A DNA stretch of 64,000 nucleotides, from NCBI RefSeq assembly GCF_017348835.2, contig NZ_CP071375.1; one strand, 5' to 3'. The stretch comes from Escherichia coli (GTDB lineage Bacteria > Pseudomonadota > Gammaproteobacteria > Enterobacterales > Enterobacteriaceae). A program made the translations under genes and the position numbers. The notes under the pieces were generated by a model that saw only the letters and a list, made by a program, of their open reading frames with translations, was not told where the DNA came from and ran no database searches. Of the stretch, positions 53,208 through 61,236 are shown piece by piece. Numbering within the stretch: the first letter of the stretch is position 1; every line of letters begins with the position of its first letter.

Positions 53208-54707
53208 ATGCTAAATTTATTTGTTGGCCTTGATATATACACAGGGCTTTTGTTATTACTTGCTCTGGCATTTGTGTTGTTCTACGAAGCAATCAATGGT
53301 TTTCATGACACGGCGAATGCGGTGGCAACCGTTATTTATACTCGTGCCATGCAGCCACAACTTGCTGTGGTGATGGCGGCATTTTTTAACTTTTTTGGCG
53401 TGTTATTGGGCGGACTTAGCGTTGTCTATGCCATTGTCCATATGTTGCCAACCGATTTGTTGCTGAATATGGGGTCAACCCACGGCCTGGCGATGGTCTT
53501 TTCCATGCTGCTAGCGGCGATTATCTGGAACCTGGGAACGTGGTTCTTTGGTTTACCGGCCTCCAGTTCGCATACCTTGATTGGCGCGATTATCGGCATC
53601 GGTTTAACCAACGCGCTGTTAACCGGCTCATCGGTGATGGATGCGTTAAACCTGCGTGAAGTGACCAAAATTTTCTCCTCGCTGATTGTTTCCCCTATCG
53701 TCGGCCTGGTCATTGCGGGTGGTCTGATTTTCCTGCTGCGCCGTTTCTGGAGCGGGACGAAAAAGCGTGACCGTATTCACCGCATTCCGGAAGATCGCAA
53801 AAAGAAAAAAGGCAAACGTAAACCGCCATTCTGGACGCGTATTGCGCTGATTGTTTCCGCTGCGGGCGTGGCGTTTTCGCACGGCGCGAACGACGGGCAG
53901 AAAGGGATCGGCCTGGTAATGCTGGTACTGGTGGGGATAGCCCCCGCAGGTTTCGTCGTTAATATGAACGCGTCTGGCTATGAAATTACGCGTACCCGCG
54001 ATGCCGTCACCAACTTCGAACACTATCTGCAACTGCATCCTGAACTGCCGCAGAAGTTGATTGCGATGGAACCTCCATTGCCTGCGGCACCGACTGATGG
54101 CAAGCAAGTGACGGAGTTCCATTGTCATCCGGCAAATACCTTTGATGCAATTGCGCGCGTTAAAACGATGCTGCCGGGAAATATGGAAAGCTACGAACCG
54201 TTAAACGTGAGTCAACGTAGTCAGTTGCGCCGGATTATGCTTTGTATCTCTGATACCTCTGCGAAGCTGGCGAAACTGCCTGGCGTTAGCAAAGACGACC
54301 AGAACTTGCTGAAAAAACTGCGCAGCGATATGTTAAGCACCATTGAATATGCTCCTGTGTGGATAATCATGGCGGTGGCTTTAGCGCTCGGCATTGGCAC
54401 CATGATTGGCTGGCGTCGTGTAGCGATGACCATCGGTGAGAAGATTGGTAAGCGCGGCATGACGTATGCGCAAGGGATGGCGGCACAAATGACGGCGGCA
54501 GTGTCTATCGGCCTTGCCAGTTATATTGGGATGCCCGTTTCCACAACACACGTCCTCTCGTCTGCGGTAGCAGGGACGATGGTGGTGGACGGCGGTGGGT
54601 TACAGCGTAAAACGGTAACCAGCATCCTGATGGCGTGGGTGTTTACTTTACCGGCGGCAATTTTTCTTTCTGGTGGGCTGTACTGGATAGCATTGCAGTT
54701 GATTTAA
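53208..54707 (+). CDS. pitB: Low-affinity inorganic phosphate transporter (PiT family)
   Basis: 499 aa; the pitB-rather-than-pitA call rests on position next to gss. Confidence 0.88.
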
Positions 54708-54716
54708 CCTTCCTGA

Positions 54717-54751
54717 AAATGCCCGGTCCTGGCGATCGGGCATTTCCATTT
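54717..54751. terminator. Bidirectional terminator between pitB and the truncated downstream gene
   Basis: Stem tgcccg / cgggca with flanking A- and T-runs. Confidence 0.5.
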
Positions 54752-54755
54752 TTGA

Positions 54756-55006
54756 CTAGTGATAACCACGCGCGGTCATAAAATCCGTAATCGCTTTTTC
54801 TGCATCAATCAGCACCTGTTCCAGTGGCTGATTGGCATCGATATCAACCAGTTGTGCACCACCAAAGGTTAACTGTGGCGTTATGGCAATCTTCCTCGCC
54901 AGCGATTCCCGTTTATGGTCGGGTTTACGCGCGCAGGCAACTTCAAGGTCAACATTGAGTTTGATGACCAGATCAGGCTTATGGCTCGCCATCCAGTGAA
55001 ACGCTT
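54756..55006 (-). pseudogene. yghT: 5'-truncated gene remnant (C-terminal ~83 codons), probably the yghT homologue, cut by IS629
   Basis: Open frame with proper stop runs without interruption up to the first base of the IS629 left inverted repeat at 55007; yghT identity inferred from K-12 position next to pitB, not from sequence recall. Confidence 0.5.
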
Positions 55007-55060
55007 TGAACCGCCCCGGAAATCCTGGAGACTAAACTCCCTGAGAAAGAGGTAAACAGG

Positions 55061-55387
55061 ATGACTAAAAATACTCGTTTTTCCCCCGAAGTCCGTCAGC
55101 GGGCGATTCGTATGGTTCTGGAAAGTCAGGATGAATATGACTCACAGTGGGCGGCAATTTGTTCCATTGCCCCAAAGATTGGCTGTACGCCGGAGACTCT
55201 GCGTGTCTGGGTTCGCCAGCATGAGCGGGATACCGGGAGTGGTGATGGTGGACTCACCACCGCTGAACGTCAGCGTCTGAAAGAGCTGGAACGTGAAAAT
55301 CGTGAACTGCGCCGCAGTAACGATATCCTTCGCCAGGCTTCCGCTTATTTTGCGAAGGCGGAGTTCGACCGCCTCTGGAAAAAATAA
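55061..55387 (+). CDS. IS629 transposase OrfA (HTH)
   Basis: 108 aa; overlaps orfB by one base near an A-run (candidate -1 frameshift region). Confidence 0.88.
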
Positions 55388-58858: not shown

Positions 58859-60175
58859 TCACCTTCTGCCAAACAGATTGACAACATTATTGCCTGTTTG
58901 CTGTTGATAGTTATTAACCCGGTCCTCCCAGATCTCAAGTGCTCTGCGTTTTTCTGGCAAATAATCGTATCGATCATAATGTTTTGAACTGACATCGTTC
59001 AACGCATGATTTTGAATACGATCGCGGATTTCCTTACTGATCCCAGCTTCTCCCATTAACGTTTTACAGGTCCGACGTAAGTCACGTGCTGTAAAAATTT
59101 TAAAGTCAGGATTAAAAGCCCGGAAATACATGATAGCGCGAGCCAGACTGTCCGTACGAACCGGACGCTTACCATTAGTCGAAAGTGGAAAAATGTAAGG
59201 GCTGGATTTTTCTTTTGTTAACTCCTGCACACAGGATAATTCCTGTAATGCTGATTCAGTCAACGGTATCAAATGCTCTCGTTTATTTTTAGAGACATCA
59301 GCAGTCACCAGCAGCGTTTTTTGTTGAAAATCAACATCACACCACTGACTGGCGATCATTTCGAAGGGACGTTGCCCTCCGGTATAGATACAGAATCGGA
59401 TCAAATGTTGCATCAATAATCCAACGTTGGTTGCTTCAGCAAAATGTTCCATTAGAAAACGCAACTCTTCAAGTGTCAGCCAGGTATCACCGACTTTTTC
59501 AGCAGATGACTGTTTCGGTATCACTGACACCGGATTTGCCTCCAGCCCAAAAGTAATCCCTGCACTTGTGTTCATCGGATCGTTATCTGCTTTCAGTCCA
59601 TAGTTAAATGCAGCCATCAGGTAAGAACGGATCCGGTTAGAGTGAACCACAGCACCACGCTGAATGATCCCGGCCAGGATATGTTTAATCTGTCCGGAAG
59701 TCACATCTTTAGCTTTAGTTTCACGGGGGATCACTGTATAGCATTCATTTTCAAGGCGTTTCAGAACATCCTGCCATGTCCTCTTATTATCAATTTTCAT
59801 TTTGTTAACATAACCATGAATCAATGCTTCAAATGAGCCCTGTGATTGATGGAGTTGTATCCGCTGCTGTTCTGCAAACTGTTGTCGTTCCAGTTCTGCC
59901 TGGGGATCCTTTCCTTCAATGAGCCAGGCACCATACTTTTTTGCCAGTTCATTCGCTGTGGCCAGTTTCATCTCAGGCCATATACCCAATTGAATGAATC
60001 TTTCTTTTTTCCCTTTTTCCACGTAATAGCGGAAATAGAAAATCTTGCTGCCAGAAGACTGAACTTTGACACCAAGTCGTCCAGTGCCACGTTGAGAGCT
60101 GTTGCTCCAGACATAGAACGATGTCTTTTTTGCTTTCAATGCTCGGATGGCTGTTTCAGTAAGATTGACGGCCAT
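58859..60175 (-). CDS. Tyrosine site-specific integrase (P4-like, N-terminal DUF4102-type arm-binding domain)
   Basis: 438 aa; C-terminal catalytic region with R...HxLR...Y pattern (..LRRTCKTL.., ..HYDRYDY..); adjacent to tRNA-derived att repeat. Confidence 0.85.
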   Translation of the reverse strand: MAVNLTETAIRALKAKKTSFYVWSNSSQRGTGRLGVKVQSSGSKIFYFRYYVEKGKKERFIQLGIWPEMKLATANELAKKYGAWLIEGKDPQAELERQQFAEQQRIQLHQSQGSFEALIHGYVNKMKIDNKRTWQDVLKRLENECYTVIPRETKAKDVTSGQIKHILAGIIQRGAVVHSNRIRSYLMAAFNYGLKADNDPMNTSAGITFGLEANPVSVIPKQSSAEKVGDTWLTLEELRFLMEHFAEATNVGLLMQHLIRFCIYTGGQRPFEMIASQWCDVDFQQKTLLVTADVSKNKREHLIPLTESALQELSCVQELTKEKSSPYIFPLSTNGKRPVRTDSLARAIMYFRAFNPDFKIFTARDLRRTCKTLMGEAGISKEIRDRIQNHALNDVSSKHYDRYDYLPEKRRALEIWEDRVNNYQQQTGNNVVNLFGRR

Positions 60176-60371
60176 AGAACCTCTTTTCTAAACCAGTAAC
60201 AATCAGAATAACTCGTGATTTTGGGTCAGGTAATGGGTCAGGTAACGATCGTACAATGAAGAAAAAACGGAACCAAGCGGAGACAGAGAAAATTACATAA
60301 TTCATTGATTATAAACAACTAATAAAGCAATCGCGAACAAACAAAAACAATATAGAACGAACTTGCCTCAT

Positions 60372-60418
60372 GACTCATAATCGCTTGGTCGCTGGTTCAA
60401 GTCCAGCAGGGGCCACCA
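60372..60418 (+). repeat. Partial tRNA-Ile(CAU) (ileX-type) 3' end: 47-nt att direct repeat, not a functional tRNA gene
   Basis: GACTCATAATCGCTTGGTCGCTGGTTCAAGTCCAGCAGGGGCCACCA matches anticodon stem-loop (CAU) through CCA of ileX as remembered; the 5' half of the tRNA (GGCCCCTTAGCTCAG...) is absent and replaced by island sequence. Confidence 0.75.
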
Positions 60419-60426
60419 GATACAGT

Positions 60427-60460
60427 AAAGGCTGACGAGAAATCGTCAGCCTTTTTCTTT
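60427..60460 (+). terminator. Native ileX terminator
   Basis: Hairpin ggctgacga...tcgtcagcc followed by TTTTTC. Confidence 0.6.
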
Positions 60461-60471
60461 TCATATATCAG

Positions 60472-61236
60472 TTACTTCGCGTGCCAGTAAGCCGCTGCAC
60501 GTACCTGTTGAGGGTCATACTGTTCCGCTTCAAAGCGACGGCTTAAATTCTTCACCACCTTCCCTTCGCCGGTTATCCAGATGAAGTAATCATCGGCAGG
60601 GATTTGCATCTGCGCCAGACGCGCATCTACCGCCTGCTCATCATGTGCCAGCCATTCGATATTAAAACCATCAAGGTGCGCGAGATAATCCTGACAGGCG
60701 TTATCCCGCACGCTAACCAGCGCGCTAACTTGCGGTTTAACGGCAAGTTTGCTCAACGTTTCCAGGCGGCGGCGCAGTGCGGGCATTCCGGATTCATCGC
60801 AGACATACAGCTGATACGCGTAATCTTCCGGCACCACCAGCGAACCGCGCGGACCTGCCACCGTGAGTTTATCGCCCGGTTGGGCCTGCATTGCCCAGCT
60901 ACTGGCGACGCCGTCTTCGTGAATAAAGAAATCAATCGCCAGTTCATGGCGTAGTTCGTCATACAACGGCGTATAGTCACGCGACGGTGGGCGTGGTCCT
61001 TCCGGCCAGACGATGCCCTCTTCCGTTACCGTTGGCGGCACAAAGTGAGCGTCAGGTTGAGGAAAGAAGAGTTTGCTGTGATCGTCAAAGCCGCGCGATG
61101 TAAAACCGTCCAGCGCCTCGCCGCCAAGGACAATGCGCTGAAAACCGGCGCTGATACGCTCAACGCGTAGCACAGTCAGTTCACGGAACCGCAGATCATT
61201 GCGAACGCGCTGCGGGTAGCGGGGGGTGTTATTCAT
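60472..61236 (-). CDS. yqjH: NADPH-dependent ferric-siderophore reductase (siderophore-interacting protein, FAD-binding)
   Basis: 254 aa, MNNTPRYPQRVRNDLRFRELTVLRVERIS..., ViuB-like. Confidence 0.9.
   Translation of the reverse strand: MNNTPRYPQRVRNDLRFRELTVLRVERISAGFQRIVLGGEALDGFTSRGFDDHSKLFFPQPDAHFVPPTVTEEGIVWPEGPRPPSRDYTPLYDELRHELAIDFFIHEDGVASSWAMQAQPGDKLTVAGPRGSLVVPEDYAYQLYVCDESGMPALRRRLETLSKLAVKPQVSALVSVRDNACQDYLAHLDGFNIEWLAHDEQAVDARLAQMQIPADDYFIWITGEGKVVKNLSRRFEAEQYDPQQVRAAAYWHAK

Follow-up and report, generated by a model that had tools for sequence, protein, structure and literature searches.

In K-12, pitB and the group ileX-yqjH-yqjI-aer are separate neighbourhoods, with ileX at the far end of an 81-kb interval from yghT. 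Within the 64,000 nucleotides of Escherichia coli DNA analysed here (the window), they lie only a few kilobases apart: pitB is followed by a truncated yghT, an IS629 copy, a short stretch of island DNA, the 3' repeat of ileX and yqjH. The original prediction took this as the mark of an ~80-kb inversion relative to K-12, produced by exchange between one IS629 in yghT and another inside the islet integrated at ileX. Two questions follow: is the inversion real, and did IS629 alone make it? The window is the reverse complement of the record NZ_CP114128.1, from the pig strain E. coli O108:H9 PE164.

An inverted block between speC-pheV and nfeF-aer

We aligned 118 kb of the PE164 source genome with K-12 by blastn. 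The stretch from window position -25281 to 55007 matches K-12 from 3,215,686 down to 3,134,572 on the minus strand, while the window from 60372 onward matches K-12 from 3,215,627 upward on the plus strand, as does speC-pheV past the far end of the block. K-12 3,134,572-3,215,686 (yghT' to ileX, 81 kb) is reversed in PE164 between speC-pheV and nfeF(yqjH)-aer, both of which keep their K-12 orientation. The inverted core DNA measures 80,288 bp in PE164 and 81.1 kb in K-12 coordinates; with attached mobile DNA the whole segment comes to 93.6 kb (record 670,206-763,761), and comprises the IS629 in yghT, 80.3 kb of core genes (yghT'-pitB-hyb...parC...ribB...rpoD-mug-ileX) and 12 kb of ileX-attached island DNA. 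The part of the core block inside the window (1..55006) is K-12 3,134,573-3,185,069 read backwards, plus local insertions and deletions, and its minus-strand matches are 98.2-98.7% identical. The block runs on for 25 kb past the window start, up to an intact ileX (tRNA-Ile, record 751,715-751,790) beside mug and rpoD, which is where the prediction had expected to find it.

GC skew, read in record orientation, is +0.029 in the left flank, -0.038 in the 80.3-kb block (where 20% of 40 skew windows are positive) and +0.029 in the right flank. The corresponding K-12 segments give -0.047, -0.032 and -0.030, all three negative. A block whose skew is opposite to that of both flanks, against a reference of one sign, is what a recent inversion within one replichore leaves behind. 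K-12 alignment, the gene order of the source record and GC skew all bear out the predicted inversion. The K-12 map on which it was built is correct, and the reversed ribB-to-pitB block, the IS629, the islet, the ileX 3' repeat and yqjH are each in the place described. The change of order and orientation is real and not due to chance.

The sister strain F2_81, which differs from PE164 by about 1.5-2.6 SNPs per 10 kb, is collinear with K-12; window positions 1..55006 are 100% identical to it, on the opposite strand. Among the 32 nearest genomes, about 30 likewise show the K-12-like arrangement. Judged from these sequences, the inverted arrangement is probably the derived state, as F2_81 is near-identical to PE164 and shares its yghT'|IS629 junction, yet is K-12-collinear.

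The IS629 copy and the ileX-island stub

The inverted block has pitB as its last intact gene (53208-54707, plus strand, PGAP annotation of the source record), on the strand opposite to that of K-12 pitB (b2987). It is followed by yghT', a 251-bp C-terminal remnant on the minus strand (54756-55006; annotated 'thymidylate kinase, missing N-terminus'). The gene is cut at K-12 position 3,134,572/3, where K-12 goes on CTT|TACGTTCC, absent from PE164 here, and the truncation is identical in F2_81.

Abutting yghT' is a 1310-bp IS3-family element of the IS629/IS1203 type on the plus strand (IS629a, 55007-56316), recognised by its sequence, terminal inverted repeats and annotation. Its IRL adjoins yghT' and its IRR adjoins the ileX-island stub. 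The repeats, which begin TGAACCGCCCCGG, are imperfect, the first 13 bases being identical at both ends and 29 matching among the first 40. The orfA-orfB pair (55061-55387 and 55387-56274) is read with a programmed -1 frameshift over 55061-56274, and PGAP labels it 'IS3 family transposase, programmed frameshift, AL1L pseudoknot'; closely related copies in other places are annotated 'IS3-like element IS1203 family', IS1203 being a variant of IS629 (PMC6985150). IS629a has no 3-bp target duplication, its flanks being CTT and GTA, whereas undisturbed IS629 copies carry one (TGC/TGC in FORC 064, TAT/TAT in UTAK-1). The missing duplication is a sign of rearrangement in this copy and not of another family.

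On the other side of the element lies the integrase-proximal stub of the ileX island, annotated over ~4 kb (56317-60371) and 100% identical to F2_81. The junction (56316..56317) falls just upstream of a gene for a 534-aa hypothetical protein (56446-58050, plus strand), which is followed by one for a 198-aa hypothetical protein (58133-58729, minus strand); both are known from annotation, and neither has a PADLOC or NCBIfam match. Next comes a tyrosine integrase of 438 aa (58859-60175, minus strand; NCBIfam PRK09692, E=6e-22). A pattern search found two tandem copies of the 11-mer GGGTCAGGTAA on the side of attR that faces the island (60223-60245, plus strand); the pair occurs also beside the intact ileX, and we regard these repeats as candidate integrase arm sites. 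The attR repeat itself is ileX' (60372-60418, plus strand), the displaced native 3' 47 nt of tRNA-Ile(CAU), identical to K-12 ileX positions 30-76, while the intact ileX at the far end has an island-type T-arm. In F2_81, which is not inverted, intact ileX and the 47-nt repeat flank the island in direct orientation. With a tyrosine integrase at one end and a tRNA 3' repeat at the distal end, it has the make-up of a tRNA-integrated island. Past ileX' comes the uninverted flank, with nfeF/yqjH (60472-61236, minus strand), nfeR/yqjI (61524-62147, plus strand) and aer (62254-63774, minus strand), each annotated and each within the plus-strand match to K-12.

We counted these junctions in 5,426 complete genomes. 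The join of IRR to the ileX island is spanned in one genome only, that of PE164, and the yghT'|IRL junction in PE164 and F2_81 only. At the site of window position 56317, the island DNA of F2_81 and many other genomes continues without an IS towards a gene for an HTH regulator.

Between IS629a and the orthologous copy in F2_81, 14 of the 1310 positions differ, roughly 50-fold above background. Such a number is expected if the element was largely replaced by another copy, as in an exchange between two IS629s, although the differences could instead stem from gene conversion in F2_81 and not from exchange in PE164. A single crossover replacing IS629a would have to lie inside the first 140 bp, a chance of ~11% if crossovers are uniform.

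The far end and the route to the inversion

At the far end of the segment the order is ileX-DUF4942-DUF957-DUF5983'-IS1-TcdA/B-like gene-decayed P4-type int'-48-nt pheV fragment; past this fragment (the tRNA-Phe attachment core) come a decayed ICE remnant and then pheV. The DUF5983'|IS1|TcdA/B junction is kept in many genomes, and the int'|pheV-core junction of PE164 is found also in C7, FORC 064 and UTAK-1. There is no IS629 here. The nearest other copy, IS629b, lies 4 kb further on inside the ICE remnant and in direct orientation to IS629a, both being on the minus strand of the record. It has ICE DNA on both sides, and the remnant is collinear across it with the intact ICE of strain MS1170; it lacks a target duplication, and 4.9 kb present in the MS1170 ICE are missing there. 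PE164 also lacks ~60 kb of island DNA that F2_81 carries, namely the inner part of the ileX island and the pheV island of the F2_81 type; a type I restriction system and the Cah adhesin are encoded there.

Of the two breakpoints that had been predicted, the IS629 copy inside yghT and the island integrated at ileX were both found, while the second IS629 in the islet was not. A single reciprocal exchange between two inverted IS629 copies would account for an element sitting exactly at the near junction without a target duplication and for its 14 differences from F2_81, and inversions caused by IS and prophage repeats are known from E. coli. As the whole event, however, it is scarcely credible. 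An IS copy is found at one end only; IS629b is 4 kb off, direct and not inverted, with its flanks unexchanged; none of the 5,426 genomes, PE164 included, has the reciprocal junction IRR|yghT-N or island|IRL; and a reciprocal inversion leaves the ~60-kb loss unexplained. Exchange between two IS629 copies may still account for one step of two.

The near junction lies inside a 1.3-kb repeat with about 30 copies in the PE164 genome and is unique to one assembly, for which the sequencing description mentions only Illumina reads and Unicycler. One might suspect that the join across IS629 is wrong and that PE164 is truly K-12-collinear. We consider such an artefact very improbable. A false inversion could arise only from inverted copies of one repeat at the two ends, and no such copy is present at the far end. 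Two features fix how the block is oriented relative to pheV-speC, the conserved DUF5983'|IS1|TcdA/B junction and the collinearity of the ICE remnant with the MS1170 ICE across IS629b. Moreover, re-pairing the four IS629-adjacent ends yields only a 96-kb circle carrying rpoD, dnaG, parC and parE, which is not viable, and FORC 064 and C7, assembled independently, show the same orientation.

The best explanation overall, which we think likely, is a real inversion within one replichore, the product of two exchanges at the ends of mobile DNA. It is the ~60 kb missing relative to F2_81 that makes the PE164 structure the product of two exchanges. At the near end, where the IS629 in yghT is fused by its IRR to the 4-kb integrase-proximal stub of the ileX island, the event would have been either an exchange with a second IS629 inserted at window position 56317 or an IS-adjacent deletion. 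At the far end, where the decayed P4-type integrase stub beside the TcdA/B-like toxin gene is fused to the 48-nt pheV attachment fragment, the exchange would have taken place at the pheV att core or at the termini of CP4-like islands. The earlier of the two exchanges, acting on inverted repeats, would have flipped the segment; the later one, acting on direct repeats, would have deleted the 60 kb, and the final sequence would be the same in either order. For the ancestral island content we assume that the TcdA/B island and the ICE remnant were present and were later lost in F2_81.

The inversion, its junction sequences and the absence of the ~60 kb are observed directly, while the number and order of events we infer. 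Exchange between two IS629 copies may have done the flipping, as step one; exchange at att or island ends, as in FORC 064 and C7, is just as tenable, and other histories of the flip are rather unlikely. If att x att exchange is considered, the far-end product in PE164 agrees with it, consisting of 48-nt pheV' with core variant CCGGCACCA and the int' arm; the near-end product has been deleted. FORC 064 and C7 have both products, for which homologous recombination within the neighbouring 1.4-kb module is an equally good explanation. No genome was found with IS629 at the islet site as an intermediate, nor an inverted genome of the PE164 clone with the complete island, so the two-step history and its order rest on comparing two genomes.

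The polarity of the change could also be reversed. If PE164 and F2_81 descend from a common ancestor with the inverted arrangement of FORC 064 and C7, F2_81 would have flipped back between CP4-like island ends, shedding the TcdA/B island and ICE remnant, and PE164 would have undergone only a 60-kb IS629-adjacent deletion. Such a history needs about as many events as the preferred one, flips at the ends of these islands are clearly recurrent, and the terminal island module of F2_81 is mosaic relative to other strains. Yet F2_81 and all other near relatives sampled are K-12-like, and two orientation changes are needed against one for an inversion in the PE164 lineage; we judge the reversal in F2_81 quite unlikely.

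Consequences and comparison with known rearrangements

The PE164 rearrangement is real but ordinary, an inversion inside a single replichore caused by mobile DNA; this kind of rearrangement is already known, and it opens no new question. It is a useful marker of the clone and shows once more how E. coli chromosomes are reshaped by tRNA-linked islands and IS629; its lesson is that a repeat at one visible junction need not reveal the whole mechanism. From K-12 strand lists we infer that ~75 core genes are reversed relative to replication in PE164, the rpsU-dnaG-rpoD operon now being co-directional and hyb, parC, parE and ftsP-plsC head-on.

FORC 064 (NZ_CP022664.1) and C7 (NZ_CP010240.1) resemble PE164 in having the core interval inverted between nfeF-aer and pheV-speC, and their far end is the same (ileX-DUF4942-DUF957-DUF5983'-IS1-TcdA/B-int'-pheV core). 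Their near end is a complete ileX island that ends DUF4942-terminus-22-nt pheV core-native pheV downstream-yghD, with no IS629 at either end of the interval, whereas in PE164 the near end is the IS629 in yghT and the 4-kb stub, and yghD to N-terminal yghT is absent. We tentatively suggest that the pheV-ileX interval (80-105 kb; rpoD-dnaG, parC/parE, tolC, hyb) may be recurrently invertible in E. coli, flips being driven by att cores and near-identical CP4-like terminal modules of islands at both tRNA genes. PE164, FORC 064 and C7 would then be separate flips, and the common UTAK-1 type, with a pheV core, a dead P4-type integrase and a TcdA/B-like toxin gene inside the ileX island, would be a trace of earlier flips in which a toxin island passed from pheV to ileX.

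Large inversions in E. coli O157:H7 and O121 arise by homologous recombination between repeated prophages or IS (PMC7430833, PMC8743559, PMC8767318). The PE164 inversion shares with them breakpoints in repeated mobile DNA, an unchanged core gene content and the character of strain-specific structural variation detectable only in closed genomes. Those inversions are mostly of 0.1-1.4 Mb, between prophages and roughly symmetric about the terminus; that of PE164 covers 94 kb inside one replichore, with the result that local GC skew and gene orientation are flipped, lies between tRNA-linked islands and is accompanied by the loss of ~60 kb. IS629-associated deletions are known from EHEC, including IS excision promoted by IEE (PMC9943667), and here too there are copies without target duplications and with DNA missing on one side (IS629a, IS629b and the yghT' copy of F2_81), although the loss in PE164 could equally be due to recombination between two IS629 copies. 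In STEC O121:H19, an integrative element was relocated between ileX and ileY with rearrangement of the genome (PMC8767318). PE164 is similar in that its rearrangement runs through tRNA-Ile-linked integrative elements sharing att sequences, but where STEC O121:H19 uses ileX and ileY, with the same attB, PE164 uses the ileX island, the pheV att site or islands, and an IS629.

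Orientation of the ileX–pheV interval

Megablast identifies the window as the reverse complement of part of the record of E. coli PE164 (NZ_CP114128.1), an O108:H9 hybrid aEPEC/ExPEC isolate from a piglet (PMC12233904), with window position w corresponding to record position 726,522 − w. By annotation and sequence, pitB (53208–54707, plus strand) is followed by a C-terminal remnant of yghT, termed yghT′ (54756–55006, minus strand), and a 1310 bp IS3-family element, termed IS629a (55007–56316, plus strand), which has IS629/IS1203-type ends and a frameshifted orfA–orfB, and whose related copies are annotated as IS1203 family. 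Next to the tyrosine integrase of the ileX island (58859–60175, minus strand, again by annotation and sequence) lie two hypothetical genes encoding proteins of 534 aa (56446–58050) and 198 aa (58133–58729); neither has a match in PADLOC or NCBIfam, and both proteins are kept in many E. coli. The native 3′ part of ileX is present as a 47-nt copy (60372–60418), beyond which come nfeF (yqjH), nfeR (yqjI) and aer, in that order. Annotation and sequence thus contain all of the elements listed in the original prediction.

We aligned the window and the neighbouring part of the source record (118 kb) with K-12 positions 3,108,000–3,230,000. The speC–pheV region matches the plus strand of K-12; the match is then to the minus strand, from K-12 3,215,686 down to 3,134,572, stopping exactly at the IS; and from window 60372 it is again to the plus strand, from K-12 3,215,627 onward (the ileX 3′ part, nfeF, aer and ebg). 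It follows that 81.1 kb of K-12-equivalent DNA, 80,288 bp in PE164, is reversed, while both flanks keep the K-12 orientation. The inversion of ∼80 kb that had been proposed is therefore real in the record and of the expected size, and the intact ileX gene, predicted to lie at the other end of the block beside mug and rpoD, is found there. GC skew, suggested as a check, flips its sign between the block and both flanks (−0.038 against +0.029 for either flank, in record orientation), while the three corresponding segments of K-12 all have one sign.

The junction is spanned by only one of 5,426 complete genomes, and among the ∼32 nearest genomes in which both orientations are readable, PE164 alone has the block and the flank on the same strand at its spacing. 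In the O157:H16 strain Santai (NZ_CP007592.1) the block and the aer flank also share a strand, but the distance between them is ∼270 kb, which suggests that this strain has undergone another, larger rearrangement.

PE164 differs from K-12 elsewhere in this region. Between ygiN and parE it has a 7.3-kb cluster that K-12 lacks (window 10326–17630), encoding an RpiR-family regulator, a TonB-dependent receptor and a siderophore ABC transporter made up of a binding protein, two FecCD permeases and an ATPase; the cluster resembles the Fit iron-uptake locus. The ygiL-yqiGHI fimbrial operon (K-12 3,185,069–3,191,708) is missing between ubiK and glgS, at a site just outside the window (about −1309 to −1235; record 727,757–727,831).

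The sister genome F2_81 and the IS629 at yghT

F2_81 (NZ_CP043542.1) comes from a pig in Australia. Over 24 kb of the block its sequence is the same as that of PE164; elsewhere the two differ by about 1.5–2.6 SNPs per 10 kb. The yghT′–IS629 junction is common to these two genomes and occurs in no other, yet F2_81 has its genes in K-12 order: aer-nfeF-ileX′-[integrase, two hypotheticals, HTH regulator ... type I R-M ... Cah ... CbtA-DUF5983-DUF957-DUF4942]-ileX-mug-rpoD, and after rpoD ... pitB-yghT′-IS629-[33-kb pheV island]-pheV-speC. The IS629–yghT′ junction thus predates the rearrangement; the novel one joins the right inverted repeat (IRR) of IS629 to window 56317, a site at which the F2_81 sequence is uninterrupted and carries no IS. 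It is possible that the inversion is older and was reverted in F2_81; such a history is less parsimonious with respect to orientation.

IS629a is flanked by CTT and GTA, without a target duplication; undisturbed copies have 3-bp duplications. Compared with its orthologue in F2_81 it differs at 14 of 1310 positions, spanning positions 141 to 1151, which is ∼50-fold over the genome background, and it is identical to one of the copies in strain FORC 064 (NZ_CP022664.1). The F2_81 copy (12487–13796 of locus L005) is a mosaic, is likewise without a target duplication, and borders on a fragment of a YfjJ-like gene in the pheV island. The missing duplication and the 14 differences together indicate that the IS at yghT recombined or was converted in either the PE164 or the F2_81 lineage. 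The data would fit a history in which a second copy of consensus type, placed at window 56317, replaced the one at yghT through a crossover within the first 140 bp.

At this locus both PE164 and F2_81 lack the region from yghD to the N-terminal part of yghT (glc, sslE/yghJ, T2SS), and an IS4 between mug and rpoD is present in F2_81 only (29584–30912 of locus L004). At the ileX island, tandem pairs of the 11-mer GGGTCAGGTAA lie on the island side of both att ends, beside the integrase (window 60223–60245) and beside the intact ileX (25850–25872 of the PE164 locus L003); the pairs are direct in F2_81 and inverted in PE164, and are candidate integrase arm sites.

The far end and the missing island DNA

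Beyond the intact ileX of PE164, DUF4942-DUF957-DUF5983′ comes first, 100% identical to F2_81, then IS1, a small ORF, an 8.9-kb gene with TcdA/TcdB-glycosyltransferase domains, the first codons of a P4-type integrase (int′), a 48-nt tRNA-Phe fragment, a 9-kb ICE remnant and pheV-yqgA-speC. The remnant is collinear with the complete pheV ICE of MS1170 except for IS200C, a second IS629 (IS629b) and a 4.9-kb gap beside IS629b; the pheV ICE of PE164 has shrunk from a full conjugative element to ∼9 kb. IS629b (L003 41658–42967; record 767,657–768,966) lies inside the remnant and has no target duplication. We rejected it as an exchange partner: it is in direct orientation, on the same strand as IS629a, has ICE DNA on both sides, and is associated with the separate 4.9-kb loss.

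No IS629 is present at the far end of the inverted segment. Synthetic queries for the reciprocal junctions (IS629 IRR with the N-terminal side of yghT, and the HTH side of the island with IS629 IRL) were spanned by none of the 5,426 genomes, and PE164 contains no large copy of the ileX-island interior (∼26 kb) or of the 33-kb pheV island of F2_81, which led us to reject relocation of this DNA within PE164. One reciprocal exchange between IS629 copies is therefore not enough to explain the structure. The original prediction holds for the inversion, its size and the position of ileX, but its mechanism, one exchange between two IS629 copies, does not account for the far end, the absent reciprocal junctions or the ∼60 kb lost. 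A recently imported tract of DNA around pheV was also rejected as the source of the island differences, given that the 42 kb past pheV contain 11 differences, an SNP density like that elsewhere.

The published description of PE164 names only Illumina reads and Unicycler (PMC12233904), and the inversion could in principle be a product of assembly. We consider this very unlikely. Such an error needs the same inverted repeat at both ends, which the far end does not offer; the orientation of the block relative to pheV is fixed both by the widely conserved DUF5983′–IS1–TcdA/B junction and by ICE collinearity across IS629b; the sole other pairing of the four IS629-adjacent ends would give a 96-kb circle carrying essential genes; and the same orientation is found in two independent assemblies.

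Possible recurrent inversion between ileX and pheV

Two unrelated strains, FORC 064 and C7 (NZ_CP010240.1), also have the pheV–ileX interval in reverse, with aer-nfeF on one side and pheV-speC on the other. At their near end is a complete ileX island, then the DUF4942 terminus, a 22-nt pheV core, native pheV downstream sequence and yghD; the far end reads ileX-DUF4942-DUF957-DUF5983′-IS1-TcdA/B-int′-pheV core, with the whole pheV gene in C7, and its junction is that of PE164. In both strains each end of the interval coincides with a CP4-like island terminus or with the 22-nt pheV core. A further group, UTAK-1 and several others, has the K-12 order, yet carries DUF4942 terminus-pheV core-int′-TcdA/B within the ileX island; here the 22-nt core of tRNA-Phe and the stub of a dead P4-type integrase lie between the DUF4942 terminus and the 8.9-kb gene (L011 11822–12222 in UTAK-1), an arrangement resembling a piece of a tandem-island array from pheV that has been moved to ileX. 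The C7-type junction TcdA/B-pheV-yqgA, in which the toxin-domain gene directly abuts pheV, occurs in C7 only among the 5,426 genomes and so gave no frequency; orientation was instead read from strand pairs, which place ∼7 of the strains with the gene in the UTAK-1-type class and three (PE164, FORC 064 and C7) in the inverted class. Exchange evidently takes place at the att cores and at the near-identical 1.4-kb modules that end these islands, and the pheV–ileX interval may flip recurrently, shuttling a toxin island between ileX and pheV. SNP patterns in the DUF5983-DUF957-DUF4942 modules, which proved mosaic in every strain, did not discriminate between possible orders of events.

The final structure in PE164 is an inversion plus the loss of ∼60 kb, and two exchanges would be needed, one at IS629 and the other at the pheV core or island termini. 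In one route, an IS629 pair, inverted in a K-12-like chromosome, would exchange first and flip the segment, joining the F2_81-type pheV island to the ileX-island interior as an element flanked by direct pheV att sites, which could then excise. In the other, an att or island exchange, as in FORC 064 and C7, would flip the segment first, after which two IS629 copies, now direct, would delete the intervening DNA; alternatively, one single IS629 might cause an adjacent deletion. Either route would yield precisely the observed sequence, and from a comparison that rests on two genomes we regard the two as roughly equally probable.

We found no published account of a pheV–ileX inversion, and the PE164 paper makes no mention of one (PMC12233904). 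Both inversions between repeated mobile elements (PMC7430833, PMC8743559, PMC8767318) and IS629-linked deletions (PMC9943667) have been well documented in E. coli. The PE164 case is a new instance, but differs from the documented mobile-element inversions in being smaller, in lying within one replichore and between tRNA-linked islands, and in combining inversion with deletion.
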